A stretch of 64,000 nt of DNA, taken from assembly GCA_945949305.1 (NCBI GenBank), contig CAMFED010000002.1:14605-78604 (forward strand). The letters run 5' to 3'. The notes under the pieces were generated by a model, which saw nothing but the letters and a program-made list of their open reading frames with translations, did not search any database and was not told the origin of the DNA. The DNA comes from an uncultured Mycoplasmatota bacterium. Lineage in GTDB: Bacteria > Bacillota_I > Bacilli_A > RF39 > UBA660. Position 1 is the first letter of the stretch; every line of letters starts with the position of its first letter. The translations under genes and the position numbers were made by a program. This document shows, one piece after another, positions 44,878 through 51,080 of the stretch.

Positions 44878-45646
44878 TCATTTTGTAATTGTTTTATTTA
44901 TACAAGTGACCTAGATCTAAGTACCATGACTATTTGTACTACTACCATAACTATTAGTACTACTACCATAACTATTAGTGCTACTACCATAACTATTAGT
45001 GCTACTACCATGACTATTTGTACTACTACCATTAGAACATGTACCATTAGAATGAGTCCCTGTGCCATTACTTTTAGTCTTAGTACCATTTGTATAAGTA
45101 CCGGAAGCAGCATTACCACCCTTATTACCAAAGGTGCCCGATCCATAACTATTGGACTCTGAACCATTACCATGCGTATAAGTAGTAGAATTAGTACCAT
45201 TACTATCTGTACTACTACCATTCCTATTAGTACTAGATCCATTACTATCTGAACTAGATCCATGATTATTGGTACTAGTGCCATGAGAATTATCTGTAGT
45301 ACCATTAGAATTAGTAGCAGTATTTTTACATACCACATTCTAAGTTAATGTTTTTAAAGTCGTTGTAATAGGAGTAATATCTTTAGCAACAATCTAATCT
45401 CTTGAAGTAACTGTTGAATAAGTACTAAACATACTTGAAACAGTAGATAAATAAACATCCTATTTCATAGCATCAAATTTATTACAAATCTAATTAATAT
45501 CTGATGCATTAATTTTTTTTTCAGAAGTTAAATCTGTAGTTGAAAGTGTGGAAGTAATATTACTAAATTGTAATAAGTTATTAAGTTGAGTATATAAATT
45601 TATTAAATCATTTACATCAACCTAATTATTTTTTGCTATGCTCATA
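44878..45646 (-). CDS. repeat-rich Ser/Thr/Asn/Gly protein (candidate precursor/substrate), about 100-aa leader + repetitive core
   Basis: ATG at 45646 with an RBS aggagg. The core carries SSTNSYG/SSTNSHG repeats, visible as direct DNA repeats at about 44926-45010. It lies directly upstream of a radical SAM gene. Confidence 0.35.
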
Positions 45647-45743
45647 ACTACCTCCTATAAATATAGTATACCATATTTTTTTTCTGAAATCAACTTTTAT
45701 ATAAAATGAGGCATTAAAATTTAATGCCTCATTAATAATTTTT

Positions 45744-46610
45744 TTATTTTAAAGTATTAATAATATTTTCAATAAATTCAAATTGATGTTCAGGTTTTAT
45801 TAAATATCTGCTATATGAACAAACATTGTCAATTAAATTTAAAGTTCGTCCTTCAATCTTAAATTGATCAATTCCAAGAGGATAATAATATTGTACTATA
45901 TTTTCCCAAGTAATTGTATTTGTATTAGTAATTGTATAATTACTATTAATACTATGATGAACTGGACAATCTAATTGATAAAATTTTCCATAATTTAAAC
46001 TATACTTACTATTTTCTAAATAATGTATTTTACGCAAAGCGCAGTTTGGTTCACATATAGCATTACATAATAATTCAATATGATTTAATTGTTCTTTAGA
46101 CAAACTTTCTAAAAATTCTTTATTAGAATTTAAATCATAATCTAAACATACATAATCATATGATTTATTTAATTCTGATTTAGCAGATTCAATATCATCT
46201 AAACGTTTAGTTGTAGAAGAAATAAAATGATAATTAGGATAATTTGCTCGAATATATTCTTCTAACTTATCATTATTTATTACAATTTCATTTAATCCAT
46301 TATGTCCAATAGATAACATTAAATTTTCAAAACGACTATGAAAATTTTCTTCAGGAACTAGCGAGTTAGTAAATACATAACGAACTGCTATATTATAACT
46401 ATTATAAAATTTTACTATTTCTTCCATTTCTTCTTTGAAAGTATGTCGATGACTAGTAAAACTGCGCCCACCGTCCCATGTACAAAACTAAAAATTACCA
46501 TAACAGGAATGAATATTAATATTATCATTAAAAATTTCTTTATGAAAATGTAATAATTCTATTACTTTAGAATTTAAAGGATATGATTCATACATACCTT
46601 GTAAATTAAA
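45744..46610 (-). CDS. Cys-motif protein (paralogue of 46616-47480), function unknown
   Basis: CEPNCALRK and YPNYHFISS segments mirror CPLDCPNYFNC and YPNYKFIMS in the neighbouring gene. Confidence 0.35.
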
Positions 46611-46615
46611 ATTTA

Positions 46616-47480
46616 TCATTTCTTTTCTCCTAAAAATAATTCTTTAAATGCGCAATATTTAAATTCATCTTTAATAAAATAATTAATTAAAAATATACCA
46701 TAATCTTCTTGCTTTTGGTGACAAGATTCAATAAGAAAATGATTAATATTTAATGGTAAATAAAACTCTTTTATTTTATTTAAAGAAATTATACTTGGAT
46801 TATTGCTATAATTATAAGTATTATTACATCTACTATAAGTTCCTAAAGATGAATAAATTAATTGTGTATTGTTTTCCGCAGTTATACAATTAAAATAATT
46901 AGGGCAATCTAAAGGACAAGTTTGATTAATAACAATTTCAATTTTATTAGGTAAATTAATTTTTTGTAAATAATTTTCACTATTCTTTACTTCATTTGGA
47001 ATAGTAAATAATTCTAAATCTACATTATCTAAAACACTATTTACTACTTCTGGCGTGGAAGGACAAAGAAGATTACTATTTTTAGACATAATGAATTTAT
47101 AATTTGGATATTTACTATGAATATAATTCATTAATTCAAGATTAGAAATTTCTATATAGAATTGCATAGTAGAAAAAATATTTAATATAGTATTACTCAT
47201 TACATCAGTAAAATCAGTATCTTTTAATAAAATATTAGAGAAATCAAATCTTAATGGTAATGAAGTATCACTCATTAATTTTATATTTTCATATGTTTGG
47301 ATATCCCCAAATATATTATTAATTCCGCCATTCCATAAATTATAAGGAAAAGTACCTTTAATCTATGTAAAAATTATATTTTTATCAAGGAACCAATTTA
47401 AATGGCTCCTTGACATTTTTATAAAACGTTCATTAATATTTTTATTATAAAAAAAATCTGCTAATGTAAAATAAATCATT
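46616..47480 (-). CDS. Cys-motif protein (paralogue of 45744-46610), function unknown
   Basis: Same arrangement as its neighbour, with one TAG near the N-terminus. Confidence 0.35.
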
Positions 47481-47746
47481 AATTTACCTCATCAACTTTA
47501 GTATATAAAATATTACTTAATCTATCAAATACCTGTTTATAATCAACTACTGCATTTCTTCTTTTAACAGATTCATCGGATAAAATGTTTTTTAAACAAT
47601 CTATAATAATTTGATTTACTTCTTGGTTTTTTCCATTTAACTAAACCATATTATTATAAATAATAAATAATAAATCCAAAAACCCTTTATTATTTTTTAA
47701 GATATTTGTCTCACAAATATTTAAATTATGTTTTATCGCTTGTACT

Positions 47747-49073: not shown

Positions 49074-49105
49074 TTTTCTTCCTATTGGAATTTTACACTT
49101 GTAGT

Positions 49106-49584
49106 AATCATTCAATATCCTCCAATACCTCATCTAAAATACCATTACAATATCGACGAATTAAACCTGTATCTCTATTAAAATAAGAGCCAGTAGTAAG
49201 TAATCCATTAAAAAAACAAGAATGAATTTGTGTTAATATAAAACTAGCCTATAAAATATTTTCATATTTTAAATATTTTGCACTAACCTAATGAGCTAAA
49301 GCTAAATTATATAATAATGTTGCTACTTGTTGATAAATGTAAAAATAACTTTCTTGATTCATGATTTCATAAAGATAAATATTATCACGAATATTTTCTT
49401 CTGAATCTTTTAAAGGATTAATATATCCTTTATGATTAGCTATAAATTTTTTAATATAATAAATATTATCATTGGTGTCTTTAATATTTTCAGGAATAGT
49501 ATCAAAAATTAAACTTTGACAATTAACTAGCGTTCCATCATACATAATTTTTAATCCACCACGCATATTCCCACAAAAAATCAT
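49106..49584 (-). CDS. hypothetical protein
   Basis: ORF 49288-49584 extended through two TAGs to a TGA. Confidence 0.25.
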
Positions 49585-49596
49585 CGTACTTAGTCT

Positions 49597-50546
49597 CTAA
49601 TTTAATTTTTCTAATTCCTCTTCGGAAGCCTCAGAAACTAAATTGACTAATTCTTTTAAAGATTTACAATTAGTTTCTTCTAATAATTTTGCTTTAACAA
49701 AGCGAGGTAAATATAGTAATCCTTCTGAGGCCATATCTATTTCTTCGCATTGATTATACTTATATTTAATTTCTTTACAAGTATTTACAAAATAATTCCA
49801 TAAACGTCCATCTTCTGATGATGTATTAATTGGAACTTCTGAAGAAAAATTAATAGAGTTTCTAATAAATACATTACGATTAGTATTCATTAATGATAAC
49901 TGATGCCATAAATTATGAGCTTGAGTGATATAATTTATCATATCATCTTGTGTTTTAAATGATTTAATTAATTCATCACTAATAACACCATGATCCATAA
50001 TTTCAATTTTAATATTTTTTAAATTAATTTTATTTAATTCTGTAACTAAAGTAGTTAAATTATTTAAAATTACATCAGTACTAGCTTTACGTACTTTATC
50101 AGTACTATAATTACCATCATATGAGTACTATAGACCAACAGTGCAAGGTCTATCAAATAAATCAACACAAGCTTTAATAAAATCAATTATTCTATCAGTA
50201 TATGCCATTCCGTTTGTAGAAAAGAAAAGGTTATCTACGTTTGGCATAAAGTCTATCCATTCAGCAAGATGGTCAGTAATATGATGTAAAGTTAATGTTG
50301 GTTCCTGTCCCCAAAAATTTAAATCTTTAATATCTATTGGATTAATTTCTAACTTTTTAAATACTTGTTTAGTATTTTCAAGAAATGTTCCATCAATTAA
50401 AGCCTATTCAGTAGCTTGAGCTAATTCTTTACTATGGGAATTTAAACTTTTTGCGGCCATACAATAATTACAATTTAAATTACAACCACAAGTTGTAATT
50501 AATGAAATATTATCTATTTTATTCTAAGGATAACTTGAATATTTCA
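49597..50546 (-). CDS. radical SAM enzyme
   Basis: MKYSSYP(TAG)NKIDNISLITTCGCNLNCNYC, a C-x3-C-x2-C motif. Confidence 0.5.
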
Positions 50547-50585
50547 TTTAAAAATCTCCTTTTACTCTAATTTAATTAACCTTAT

Positions 50586-51080
50586 GTAGATGAACGCCAA
50601 GAAGTACACCAAGAAGTATTTACTCCAGTCCAATGACTACCGTTATGACTTCCATCATAAGAACCTCTATAGCCACCATCATAGCTACTATCATAACCAC
50701 CTCTATAACCACCATCATAGCTACTATCATAACTAGCTCTATAACTACCATTATAACTACTATCATAAGCACAAGTATCATTTATTGTTCTAATAGTAGT
50801 CTCAAAGGTATTTATTAATGTAGGACTAATTAAATCATTTGCATTTGGAGGGCTTTGACTTATATTTGCTCTTGTACCAACATATGAATTACTTGAAAAA
50901 GATTCAATATATCTATTTAAATCTTGAATTAATTTAGCTAAAATAACCCCATCTTGTCCTCCAGAAGAAGGGGAAAAATTGCTCTGCGAAGGGAAAAATT
51001 TAGCTCTAGCCGTATTTAAATTAGTAAATAAGGTCTATATATTACTCCAATTTACTACTCCAGATGAGCTAACTGACATA
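50586..51080 (-). CDS. repeat-rich Ser/Tyr/Gly/Asp protein (candidate precursor/substrate), leader + repetitive core
   Basis: RBS aaggagg followed by ATG. The C-terminal core reads YDSSYNGSYRASYDSSYDGGYRGGYDSSYDGGYRGSYDGSHNGSH. It lies directly upstream of the radical SAM gene at 50546. Confidence 0.35.

Follow-up and report, generated by a model that had tools for sequence, protein, structure and literature searches.

Radical S-adenosylmethionine (rSAM) enzymes can act iteratively on precursors whose core is made of tandem repeats, as described for the TVGG repeats of TvgA (PMC9062424) and for the WPR repeats of WprA, which are matured by an rSAM enzyme with a helper of about 100 residues, WprC (PMC11851443). 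Whole proteins can also be modified. Indeed, the bacterial anti-phage system HxsABCD includes a 214-residue repeat protein, HxsA, that is matured by a pair of rSAM enzymes and a small protein (PMC13128918), and rSAM spliceases, assisted by a small activator, are likewise able to modify whole proteins (PMC11414181). Maturation systems resembling those of peptides that are made by the ribosome and modified after translation (RiPPs) have rarely been reported in phages. The present work concerns two repeat proteins, hereafter A and B, encoded by a phage-like stretch of 64,000 nucleotides (nt) of contig CAMFED010000002.1 (positions 14,605 to 78,604 of the forward strand; assembly GCA_945949305.1, deposited as an uncultured Mycoplasmatota bacterium), referred to below as the window. 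Comparison of their genes with those of relatives from gut metagenomes indicates that A and B are probably dedicated substrates, each of its own adjacent pair of rSAM enzymes, i.e. RiPP-like precursor proteins.

The long reading frames of the window all lie on the minus strand and many of them are broken by TAG alone. Counting TAG as a sense codon increases the coverage by open reading frames (ORFs) of at least 100 residues from 55 to 77 kb and merges fragments into full-length radical-SAM, YcaO and tail-fibre-like genes; the genes of A and B are intact only under this reading. As the TAG codons sit at alignment columns occupied by Gln in relatives, for example in the CNQKC and LQxS motifs, TAG likely means Gln. 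Despite the use of TAG as a sense codon, no suppressor tRNA(CUA) was found within the window.

Read in this way, the gene of A (44878–45645, minus strand, 7 TAG) encodes 255 residues and that of B (50582–51079, minus strand, 1 TAG) 165 residues. The initial annotation had recognised these two genes, with coordinates that were off by 1–4 nt and sizes given as 140–240 residues, and had correctly described in both a non-repetitive N-terminal region of about 100 residues, here called the N-domain (residues 1–105 of A, about 45331–45645; residues 1–102 of B, about 50774–51079). In A, the N-domain is followed by the boundary motif VVC106KNTATNSNG, by a core of about 20 Gly-terminated units (TTDNSHG and others) of which the last five are SSTNS[Y/H]G heptads, and by the C-terminal motif GTQIQVTC248INKTITK, the window form of the conserved A-type C-terminal motif being GTQIQVTCINKTITK. 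In B, the boundary Cys103 precedes a core (residues 104–165) with twelve four-residue units, each beginning with Y or H; eleven follow the pattern [Y/H]-[D/N/R]-[S/G/A]-[S/G], the last reads HWTG, and a C-terminal tail with Cys158 comes after them. The cores correspond to real tandem repeats in the DNA: a 21-nt period in 5.3 copies (44922–45032; 93% match, Tandem Repeats Finder score 180) codes for the SSTNS[Y/H]G units of A, with degenerate 21-nt units at 45197–45322, and a 36-nt period in 3.3 copies (50654–50772; 86% match, score 175) codes for the core of B. The repeat unit of B thus comprises 12 residues, YDSSYDGGYRG[G/S], and not 11 as first proposed. Likewise, the single Cys attributed to each protein was a miscount, since A has four (54, 106, 203 and 248) and B two (103 and 158); one Cys nevertheless lies exactly at the boundary between N-domain and core in both, a position that is near-invariant across the family. 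The idea that A and B are variable proteins of a diversity-generating retroelement was also considered and found no support here: key repeat positions (N/H/Y/D) are NAY codons, but a sensitive blastn search of both core DNAs against the window gave chance matches only and no template copy.

The similarity of A and B is hardly visible in a pairwise BLASTP comparison (22% identity over residues 1–100, E 0.07). Database searches retrieved 59 relatives of B and 12 of A, and the N-terminal 100 or so residues of both families align colinearly (P0060, 95% identical to A, stands for A in alignments). Profiles built independently for the two families and cut before the boundary Cys match each other in hhalign with 96.9% probability and an E-value of 1.6e-10 over 93 columns. 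According to this profile comparison, the two N-domains are true but distant (ancient) homologues, and the description of A and B as paralogues holds.

The N-domain is predicted by AlphaFold2 to form a three-helix bundle (helices 11–28, 48–63 and 86–101; predicted local distance difference test, pLDDT, 75.6; predicted template modelling score 0.66). In a full-length model of an A-type protein, the N-domain alone is confident (pLDDT 72–88) while residues 105–248 (about 30) are predicted to be disordered; the conserved C-terminal motif is not predicted to pack on the N-domain, although the alignment behind this model is shallow and the evidence weak. No match to the N-domain was found by Foldseek in the PDB or BFVD at E≤0.001, so the bundle yields no functional clue. 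No model of Pfam, NCBIfam, PHROGs or PADLOC matches A or B.

A search with the N-domain profile against 1.84 billion representative proteins revealed a large superfamily, with 526 clusters (50% identity) at E≤1e-3 and 251 at E≤1e-10, all of them metagenomic. The N-domain occupies residues 1–110 in all of the 150 matches listed, and the proteins range from 89 to 373 residues. The superfamily splits into two clades, A-type and B-type. The B-type proteins display the boundary motif I-N-[N/D]-[T/V]-C-A-[Y/H/F]-[D/N]-[S/G/A]-S and a core with an aromatic residue (Y, F, W or H) at each fourth position, separated by [R/D/N]-[S/G]-[S/G] spacers; 744 of the 1,713 spacings between aromatic residues that do not exceed 12 residues have a length of exactly 4. 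The A-type proteins carry the boundary motif [I/V]-[K/V]-C-[R/K]-N-x-A-T-N-[S/N]-x-G, cores made of x-x-S-[N/H/Y]-G pentads or of Cys-rich variants (up to 30 Cys), and a conserved C-terminal motif, T-[V/I]-I-D-[I/L]-x-[N/C]-x-x-T-T-K-[T/S]-N. In the family as a whole, cores are almost devoid of aliphatic residues and hypervariable in motif, length (29–268 residues) and Cys content, and the number of repeats differs even among near-identical strains (250/235/220 residues; 255 versus 248 residues). This combination of a conserved N-domain and a hypervariable core for which disorder is predicted is the anatomy of a leader-plus-core precursor.

One B-type relative of 373 residues (P0085; L016:507-1628) has, straight after its repeat core, a Hint/intein-like C-terminal domain (weak match to Pfam Intein_splicing) that starts at ...FRGS|CLIPGT... 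and ends with ...VHNAITK, which points to autoproteolysis at a Cys as a means of processing the C-terminus, at least in part of the family.

Genomic contexts were collected for relatives of both the A-type and the B-type repeat proteins, and their translations were searched with hidden Markov models (HMMs). In all 17 modules examined, the gene of the N-domain protein is followed, within 2–152 nt, by a gene encoding an rSAM enzyme (rSAM1); 14 of these modules are HMM-confirmed and the other three (L010, L012 and L013) have weaker N-domain E-values. On every contig that extends far enough, the next gene encodes a second rSAM enzyme, with a SPASM domain (rSAM2), and is usually followed by a small gene, the A-type and B-type versions of which are each conserved within their own type. 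In the window, the repeat genes are separated from the downstream rSAM gene by 15 nt (A) and 34 nt (B); the initial annotation had rightly placed each immediately 5' of an rSAM gene but had counted a single adjacent enzyme, whereas each repeat protein is associated with two dedicated rSAM enzymes and a small protein. It had also named, as the finding that would speak against its hedged reading of A and B as RiPP precursors or substrates, conserved proteins of this kind without rSAM neighbours in related phages; none was found among the 17 modules, and the synteny, co-diversification and anatomy reported here back that reading. Loci were also reached by an independent route, a scan of 185,579 species-representative genomes with conserved peptide patterns of rSAM2, which gave only five true relatives, all on contigs of metagenome-assembled genomes of gut Clostridia (labelled Lachnospiraceae, Faecalibacterium or Clostridia).

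Other genes recur less regularly. A YcaO gene is present in six loci (the window, L001, L010, L011, L013 and L017) and a glycosyltransferase family 2 (GT2) gene in six loci, in two of which, the window and L001, it forms part of a fusion with a third rSAM domain. A protein of about 290 residues is encoded in four loci, with two copies in the window and in L013. The surroundings outside the module vary among loci, and the small genes directly upstream of the repeat proteins have no detectable homology between loci.

This constancy bears on the suspicion that the association is a coincidence, the repeat ORFs being unrelated low-complexity sequences or non-genes beside rSAM, YcaO and GT2 enzymes that modify DNA, RNA or a host protein. 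Phages are generally known to use rSAM and glycosyltransferase enzymes in nucleic-acid hypermodification, and both the weak match of the GT2 to TET-associated glycosyltransferases (E 0.0015, below cut-off) and the proximity of the YcaO protein to the E. coli S12-accessory type would fit such a role. However, the gene order is maintained in 17 modules out of 17 across enzyme identities of 17–74%, core type and enzymes diversify together, selection has kept the N-domain conserved in 526 clusters, and both repeat genes display strong ribosome-binding sites and intact frames. A fortuitous neighbourhood is thus very improbable.

The two rSAM enzymes diverge between types to different degrees. The identity of rSAM1 reaches 42–74% within the confirmed A-type and 27–38% within the B-type but only 17–23% between types, whereas that of rSAM2 is 34–69% within the A-type and still 27–34% between types. 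In these comparisons, rSAM1 follows the core type far more tightly than rSAM2. Given the gap in rSAM identity between A-type and B-type, the two modules of the window are anciently diverged types residing in one phage and not the products of a recent duplication.

In the window, module A comprises, downstream of A and on the minus strand, rSAM1a (43519–44862, 447 residues, A-type sub-family, 42–47% identical to other A-type rSAM1 and about 22% to rSAM1b), rSAM2a (42145–43506, 453 residues, SPASM type, 14 in-frame TAG) and a small protein of 99 residues (41865–42164). The gene of the latter, which starts with GTG after GAAGGAG, overlaps the end of rSAM2a, abuts the start of the YcaO gene and was missed in simple ORF calling; its product is homologous to that of the small gene that follows rSAM2 in six A-type loci. 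Module B likewise comprises, on the minus strand, rSAM1b (49108–50547, 479 residues, B-type sub-family), rSAM2b (47726–49111, 461 residues) and a small protein of 92 residues (47479–47757) with a homologue in L001.

All rSAM1 enzymes share a CxxxCxxC motif near the N-terminus and three invariant Cys in the C-terminal part. The best PDB match of their profile is an anaerobic sulfatase-maturating enzyme (anSME; 4k37, E 2e-4), and relatives are labelled 'sulfatase maturation enzyme AslB' in JGI annotation; at least 309 clusters (90% identity) are found, all metagenomic. In the rSAM2 enzymes, a CNQKCxYCY cluster motif is combined with a SPASM domain that has all seven Cys, and the motifs HPM, LEVRNxxWT and CHR are invariant; the rSAM2 profile best matches the thioether synthase CteB (5wgg, E 9e-6). 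Only profiles reached anSME and CteB, PDB searches with the single sequences of rSAM1a and rSAM2a having given nothing useful. The weak, sub-threshold NCBIfam matches of both enzymes are mainly to peptide- or protein-maturing families (PapB, Nif11-type, QhpD, DynA and YhhB), the best match of rSAM2 being PapB with 42.8 bits for a cut-off of 340.

Because of the invariant gene order, the co-diversification, the folded N-domain attached to a hypervariable disordered core and the peptide-maturase type of the rSAM enzymes, A and B are likely rSAM substrates. The scheme that we favour, and hold to be probable with fairly good confidence, is that A and B belong to a single precursor superfamily carried by phages, within which they diverged long ago, each heading a four-gene maturation module in the order repeat protein, rSAM1, rSAM2 (SPASM) and small protein. 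The three-helix N-domain of about 100 residues would serve as a leader or enzyme docking domain, the small fourth protein possibly being an adaptor similar to a RiPP recognition element (RRE) or an activator, while the disordered core would be fed through the active sites and modified iteratively, repeat by repeat. Because it diverges sharply between core types, rSAM1 is probably the reader of the repeat motif, which is aromatic-[D/N/R]-[S/G]-[S/G] for B and S-[N/H/Y]-G for A. Conversely, the conservation of rSAM2 across types and its resemblance to thioether synthases that depend on Cys point to a shared feature as its probable target, the near-invariant boundary Cys motif (C-[R/K]-N in the A-type, C-A-[Y/H/F]-[D/N] in the B-type) being the most plausible one. 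The GT2 fused to a third rSAM domain, the YcaO protein and the two proteins of about 290 residues would be optional tailoring enzymes; as GT2 recurs in six loci, glycosylation of the repeats is plausible. The comparisons show anatomy, homology, constant gene order and co-diversification; how recognition is directed, how the enzymes share the work, their chemistry and the timing are the inferred parts of this scheme.

Several observations weigh against this interpretation. No cluster enzyme reaches the cut-off of a curated NCBIfam family, so that its chemistry cannot be assigned by homology, and the assignment of rSAM2 to the boundary Cys relies on its relative conservation and its weak resemblance to CteB and PapB. 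Furthermore, the boundary Cys is missing in some members (P0058, P0148, P0181 and P0192), the conserved C-terminal motif of the A-type fits a protein conserved at both ends better than a simple leader-plus-core peptide, and 17 contexts are a small sample of 526 clusters. Finally, no RRE/PqqD domain was recognised in the cluster with Pfam or NCBIfam, nor any leader protease or exporter with Pfam, NCBIfam, PHROG or PADLOC, and for this reason a classical cleaved and exported RiPP would go beyond what these genes demonstrate. The only candidate protease is a doubtful U32-like protein: two of six members of the proteins of about 290 residues match Pfam Peptidase_U32 at E 0.024, the PDB profile search was empty, and this identity is therefore kept as a lead rather than an identification.

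The proteins of about 290 residues form a tandem pair of divergent copies (26% identity) both in the window (45744–47479) and in the unrelated locus L013 (L013:7721-9549), which suggests that an arrangement of two subunits is conserved. Working in pairs is also a property of members of the U32 family such as UbiU/UbiV. The proteins share a conserved CPxxCP...C motif. In the window, copy 2 (46616–47479, minus strand, 287 residues) carries this motif and is possibly U32-like, and copy 1 (45744–46619, minus strand, 291 residues) has homologues in L001, L008 and L013 (two copies).

Among described systems, the repeat-core RiPPs matured by rSAM enzymes are among the closest. Like TvgA/TvgB (poly-cyclopropylglycine), WprA/WprB/WprC and the triceptides XyeA and OscA/GrrA, the phage modules associate a precursor with an adjacent rSAM/SPASM enzyme and with short tandem motifs, which in the known systems are modified one by one, with a helper of about 100 residues in some of them (PMC9062424, PMC11851443). 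Unlike these systems, they display a folded three-helix leader of about 100 residues that belongs to a new family without Pfam or NCBIfam model, always two rSAM enzymes, and hypervariable cores of up to about 270 residues; moreover, they are phage-encoded and their enzymes remain below family cut-offs. Two general features of RiPP loci are present: the precursor gene is clustered and co-diversifies with the modifying enzymes (rSAM1 in 17 modules out of 17, rSAM2 where the contig allows) and a conserved leader is joined to a variable, predicted disordered core across 526 clusters.

The repeats could then undergo an already known rSAM chemistry, either a triceptide-like three-residue cyclophane at the aromatic-X-X motifs of B-type cores or splicing at S-Y-G sites of A, in which excision of tyramine at X-Y-G generates alpha-keto-beta-amino acids. 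The periodicity of B-type cores, with an aromatic residue every four positions and Ser or Gly at +2 and +3, would suit the former, but +2 is Gly, which has no C-beta for the cyclophane link, in 7 of the 12 units of B, and Tyr is replaced by Asn or Asp in the close B relatives P0025 and P0033. The latter would be favoured by the four S-Y-G sites of A and by the fact that spliceases work with a small Y protein and are able to modify proteins (PMC11414181), but Y-G is wholly absent from B and N-G prevails among A-type relatives, which means that X-Y-G does not characterise the family. The enzymes do give weak matches to the corresponding maturases, yet these stay far below cut-offs, with 16.8–25.8 bits against 445 for the 3-CyFE family (YhhB, NF041707) and 30.5 against 518.7 for the Nif11-type maturase (TIGR04064), in the SPASM region only. 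Modification by one of these known reactions is consequently rather unlikely.

The HXS system (PMC13128918) shares with the phage modules a protein-sized tandem-repeat substrate (about 150–250 residues), two rSAM enzymes, a small protein and thus a four-gene architecture. By analogy, A and B might be effectors made late and matured in the same way, which would block the entry of competing phages (superinfection exclusion) or counter host defence. In line with this, eight tripeptides of A, four of them H-G-[S/T] and the other four Y-G-S, fit the pattern [H/Y]-G-[S/T] and have the His/aromatic-Xaa-Ser form. Nevertheless, most A-type relatives have N-G instead of H-x-S, B has no tripeptide of the H-x-S type except H-W-T, and the repeats of A and B are different from those of HXS and far more numerous. 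Neither A nor B has a signal peptide (read from the sequence) or a peptidoglycan-binding domain (Pfam). The enzymes are not detectably orthologous, rSAM1a scoring 19 bits against HxsC (TIGR03977, cut-off 267.9) and HxsB (TIGR03978) having no match, and PADLOC yields only generic viperin-like rSAM matches. Whereas 99.7% of HXS systems belong to Pseudomonadota (PMC13128918), the phage modules have hosts that appear to be Gram-positive Clostridia. An HXS-like function is distinctly improbable.

More remote parallels involve leaders or enzymes of other RiPPs. The proteusin/NHLP and Nif11 precursors combine a conserved leader of about 70–100 residues with a hypervariable core, tailored in some cases by rSAM enzymes. 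A and B resemble them in the joining of a large conserved leader domain to a hypervariable core, but differ in having hydrophilic S/N/G/T/Y repeats and in being phage-encoded; neither the sequence (Pfam, NCBIfam) nor the three-helix fold (PDB, E≤0.001) gives a match to these leaders. NHLP and Nif11 leaders are of the order of 100 residues, so a leader of this size has a precedent. Since rSAM enzymes maturing whole proteins also exist (HxsA, PMC13128918; spliceases, PMC11414181), A and B need not be regarded as unusually large for precursors, as they had been in the initial annotation.

PapB, CteB (ranthipeptide/sactipeptide) and anSME are the best, though weak, matches of the rSAM enzymes, with which they share SPASM or auxiliary clusters. 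The targets of PapB are repeated Cys-X3-Asp motifs, and those of anSME are Ser or Cys of a whole protein. However, the scores are far below cut-offs, no sulfatase motif is present, and most cores have few Cys, including those of the window (1–3 Cys), although some A-type relatives contain up to 30. Glycocins are modified by GT2 peptide glycosyltransferases of the SunS type. As in glycocins, the GT2 gene is a neighbour of one that encodes a ribosomal peptide with many Ser, Thr and Cys residues, but it is optional (6 loci), the window version is joined to an rSAM domain, and no helical-hairpin precursor of glycocin type accompanies it.

The rSAM cluster forms a low-GC island at 40–53 kb of the window (22–25% GC, against 30–39% in most of 1–40 kb and 27–37% downstream), limited by a strong hairpin (53160–53123) and a tRNA-Thr gene (39924–39999). 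It also has the highest density of in-frame TAG in the window. Indeed, 6 of its 11 genes contain 5–14 TAG (at least 11 for the rSAM-GT2 fusion), the other four counted, i.e. those of B, the 92-residue protein and both proteins of about 290 residues, having one each, whereas the genes at 15.6–37 kb mostly have none. In the published model of recoding, TAG-dense genes are expressed late. Under this model, the TAG density implies that the cluster genes, and with them the modules, would be made late in infection.

The remainder of the window is phage-like, with PHROG matches to an RNA ligase and an RNA-binding protein, gyrase and NAD-salvage genes, and a tail-fibre-like protein of 772 residues with a Gly-rich domain and Laminin_G_3. 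The latter is one of the tail-fibre-like genes directly upstream of the cluster. The module also comes after tail-fibre-like genes (Collar/F5_F8_type_C) and before an endolysin gene in L006. These neighbourhoods raise the alternative that A and B are modified virion components, the repeat protein remaining intact with its N-domain and being cross-linked by rSAM enzymes and glycosylated to make a fibre tip, a decoration or a cement protein, which would be compatible with a role as rSAM substrates. The cluster genes are TAG-dense like fibre genes, the A-type is conserved at its C-terminal motif as well as at the N-domain, and the cluster has no recognisable protease or exporter. However, the genomic position is variable: the module adjoins GT2, gyrase and ligase genes in L007, lies amid methylase and RNA-ligase genes in L008 and is not flanked by recognisable virion genes in L001, L004 and L019. 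In addition, the core is nearly devoid of hydrophobic residues and predicted to be disordered, there is no PHROG structural match, and no viral or PDB fold matches at E≤0.001. A structural role in the virion is therefore unlikely, while deserving serious consideration.

If A and B are indeed rSAM substrates, they may be phage-specific, hypervariable rSAM-matured polypeptides ('viral RiPP-proteins') whose chemistry lies outside the curated rSAM families. This chemistry could combine an anSME-like iterative modification of Ser, Asn or aromatic residues with a SPASM-catalysed link at the boundary Cys, optional glycosylation, YcaO backbone chemistry and possibly an anaerobic hydroxylation, and the late product would act outside the virion, for instance in superinfection exclusion or as an interbacterial effector in the gut. 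We put forward this fuller picture tentatively, as a possible but doubtful one.

No description of the repeat-protein family was found in the searchable literature. As judged from these comparisons, the leader-domain family and the two rSAM sub-families would be new, while the type of precursor, a leader plus repeats matured by rSAM enzymes, is known. With at least 526 N-domain clusters (50% identity) and at least 309 clusters of the partner enzyme rSAM1 (90% identity), the family is not a one-off. Its members are all metagenomic, many of them on phage-like human gut contigs of 75–360 kb, and none is in GenBank phages: no relative of the cluster was detected in 50,697 GenBank phage records, either by megablast with the entire cluster or by tblastn with the proteins B, rSAM1a and rSAM2a as queries, and when B and rSAM1a were each run singly against IMG/VR, no relative was confirmed. 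The system is thus known only from large, TAG-recoded, uncultivated gut phages, and the window genome carries its two ancient types side by side. If our inference is right, the leader-domain family could be used to mine precursors, and the repeat-based substrate of the two uncharacterised rSAM sub-families would make their chemistry easy to read by mass spectrometry. It would also raise the question of why large TAG-recoded phages of gut Clostridia invest 5–13 kb in modifying a hypervariable polypeptide late in infection.

Besides the two modules, the cluster includes several other features. A terminator-like hairpin with a 15-bp stem and a T-run (53123–53160, minus strand), just upstream of the cluster, is one of 6 terminator-like sites of the window, against 1.7 expected in shuffles, and is likely the upstream boundary of the transcription unit. 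It is followed by the gene of the radical-SAM/GT2 fusion (51042–53081, minus strand, about 680 residues; Pfam Radical_SAM 1.1e-11, Glycos_transf_2 5.5e-16), which starts with TTG at 53081, 7 nt after AAAGGAG, and has a homologous fusion in L001. The ATG of B (51079) lies 38 nt inside the 3' end of this gene (stop 51042–51044), an overlap that may reflect translational coupling. A palindromic, terminator-like hairpin with a 13-bp stem (45705–45733) separates the accessory gene from that of A; it is followed by TTGATT-17-TATACT and then by GGAGG before the ATG of A. This promoter-like site was read by eye only, the promoter scan being uninformative in such AT-rich DNA (134 matches against 124 expected). 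The last gene of the low-GC island encodes the YcaO-domain protein (40086–41864, minus strand, 592 residues; Pfam YcaO 2.8e-27), whose NCBIfam matches are all far below cut-off.

Other observations concern the rest of the window. The region 36642–39999 carries five tRNA genes (Cys-GCA, Lys-TTT, Leu-CAA, Leu-TAA and Thr-TGT), among which lies a GIY-YIG homing-endonuclease-like gene (37861–38604) with 9 in-frame TAG. A protein of 828 residues (30753–33239), without PHROG match, is 40% identical over 95–99% of its length to proteins of the uncultured 'huge phage' genomes LR756500, LR756501 and LR756503 (462–735 kb), the sole GenBank phage relatives found among the items of the window that were tested. 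A block of NAD-related genes at 19.7–24.4 kb (minus strand) encodes an NAMPT-type nicotinamide phosphoribosyltransferase (21395–22909), an NAD synthase (20136–20936), an isochorismatase/nicotinamidase-like protein (23845–24375), a macro-domain protein (20938–21432) and a phosphoribosyltransferase-domain protein (23008–23844). We take this block to resemble the phage sets for NAD+ salvage or reconstitution that have been proposed to act against NAD-depleting host defences. Finally, four genes (33254–33493, 58176–58721, 61718–61930 and 62174–63526) open with a common N-terminal module of about 40 residues, with the pattern [R/K]-[I/V]-x-x-[K/R]-x-D-T-x-A-N-W-x-x-x-N-x-[I/V]-[P/L]-L-x-G-E-[I/V] read from the translations, which looks like an adaptor shared by multiple tail-fibre or receptor-binding proteins.

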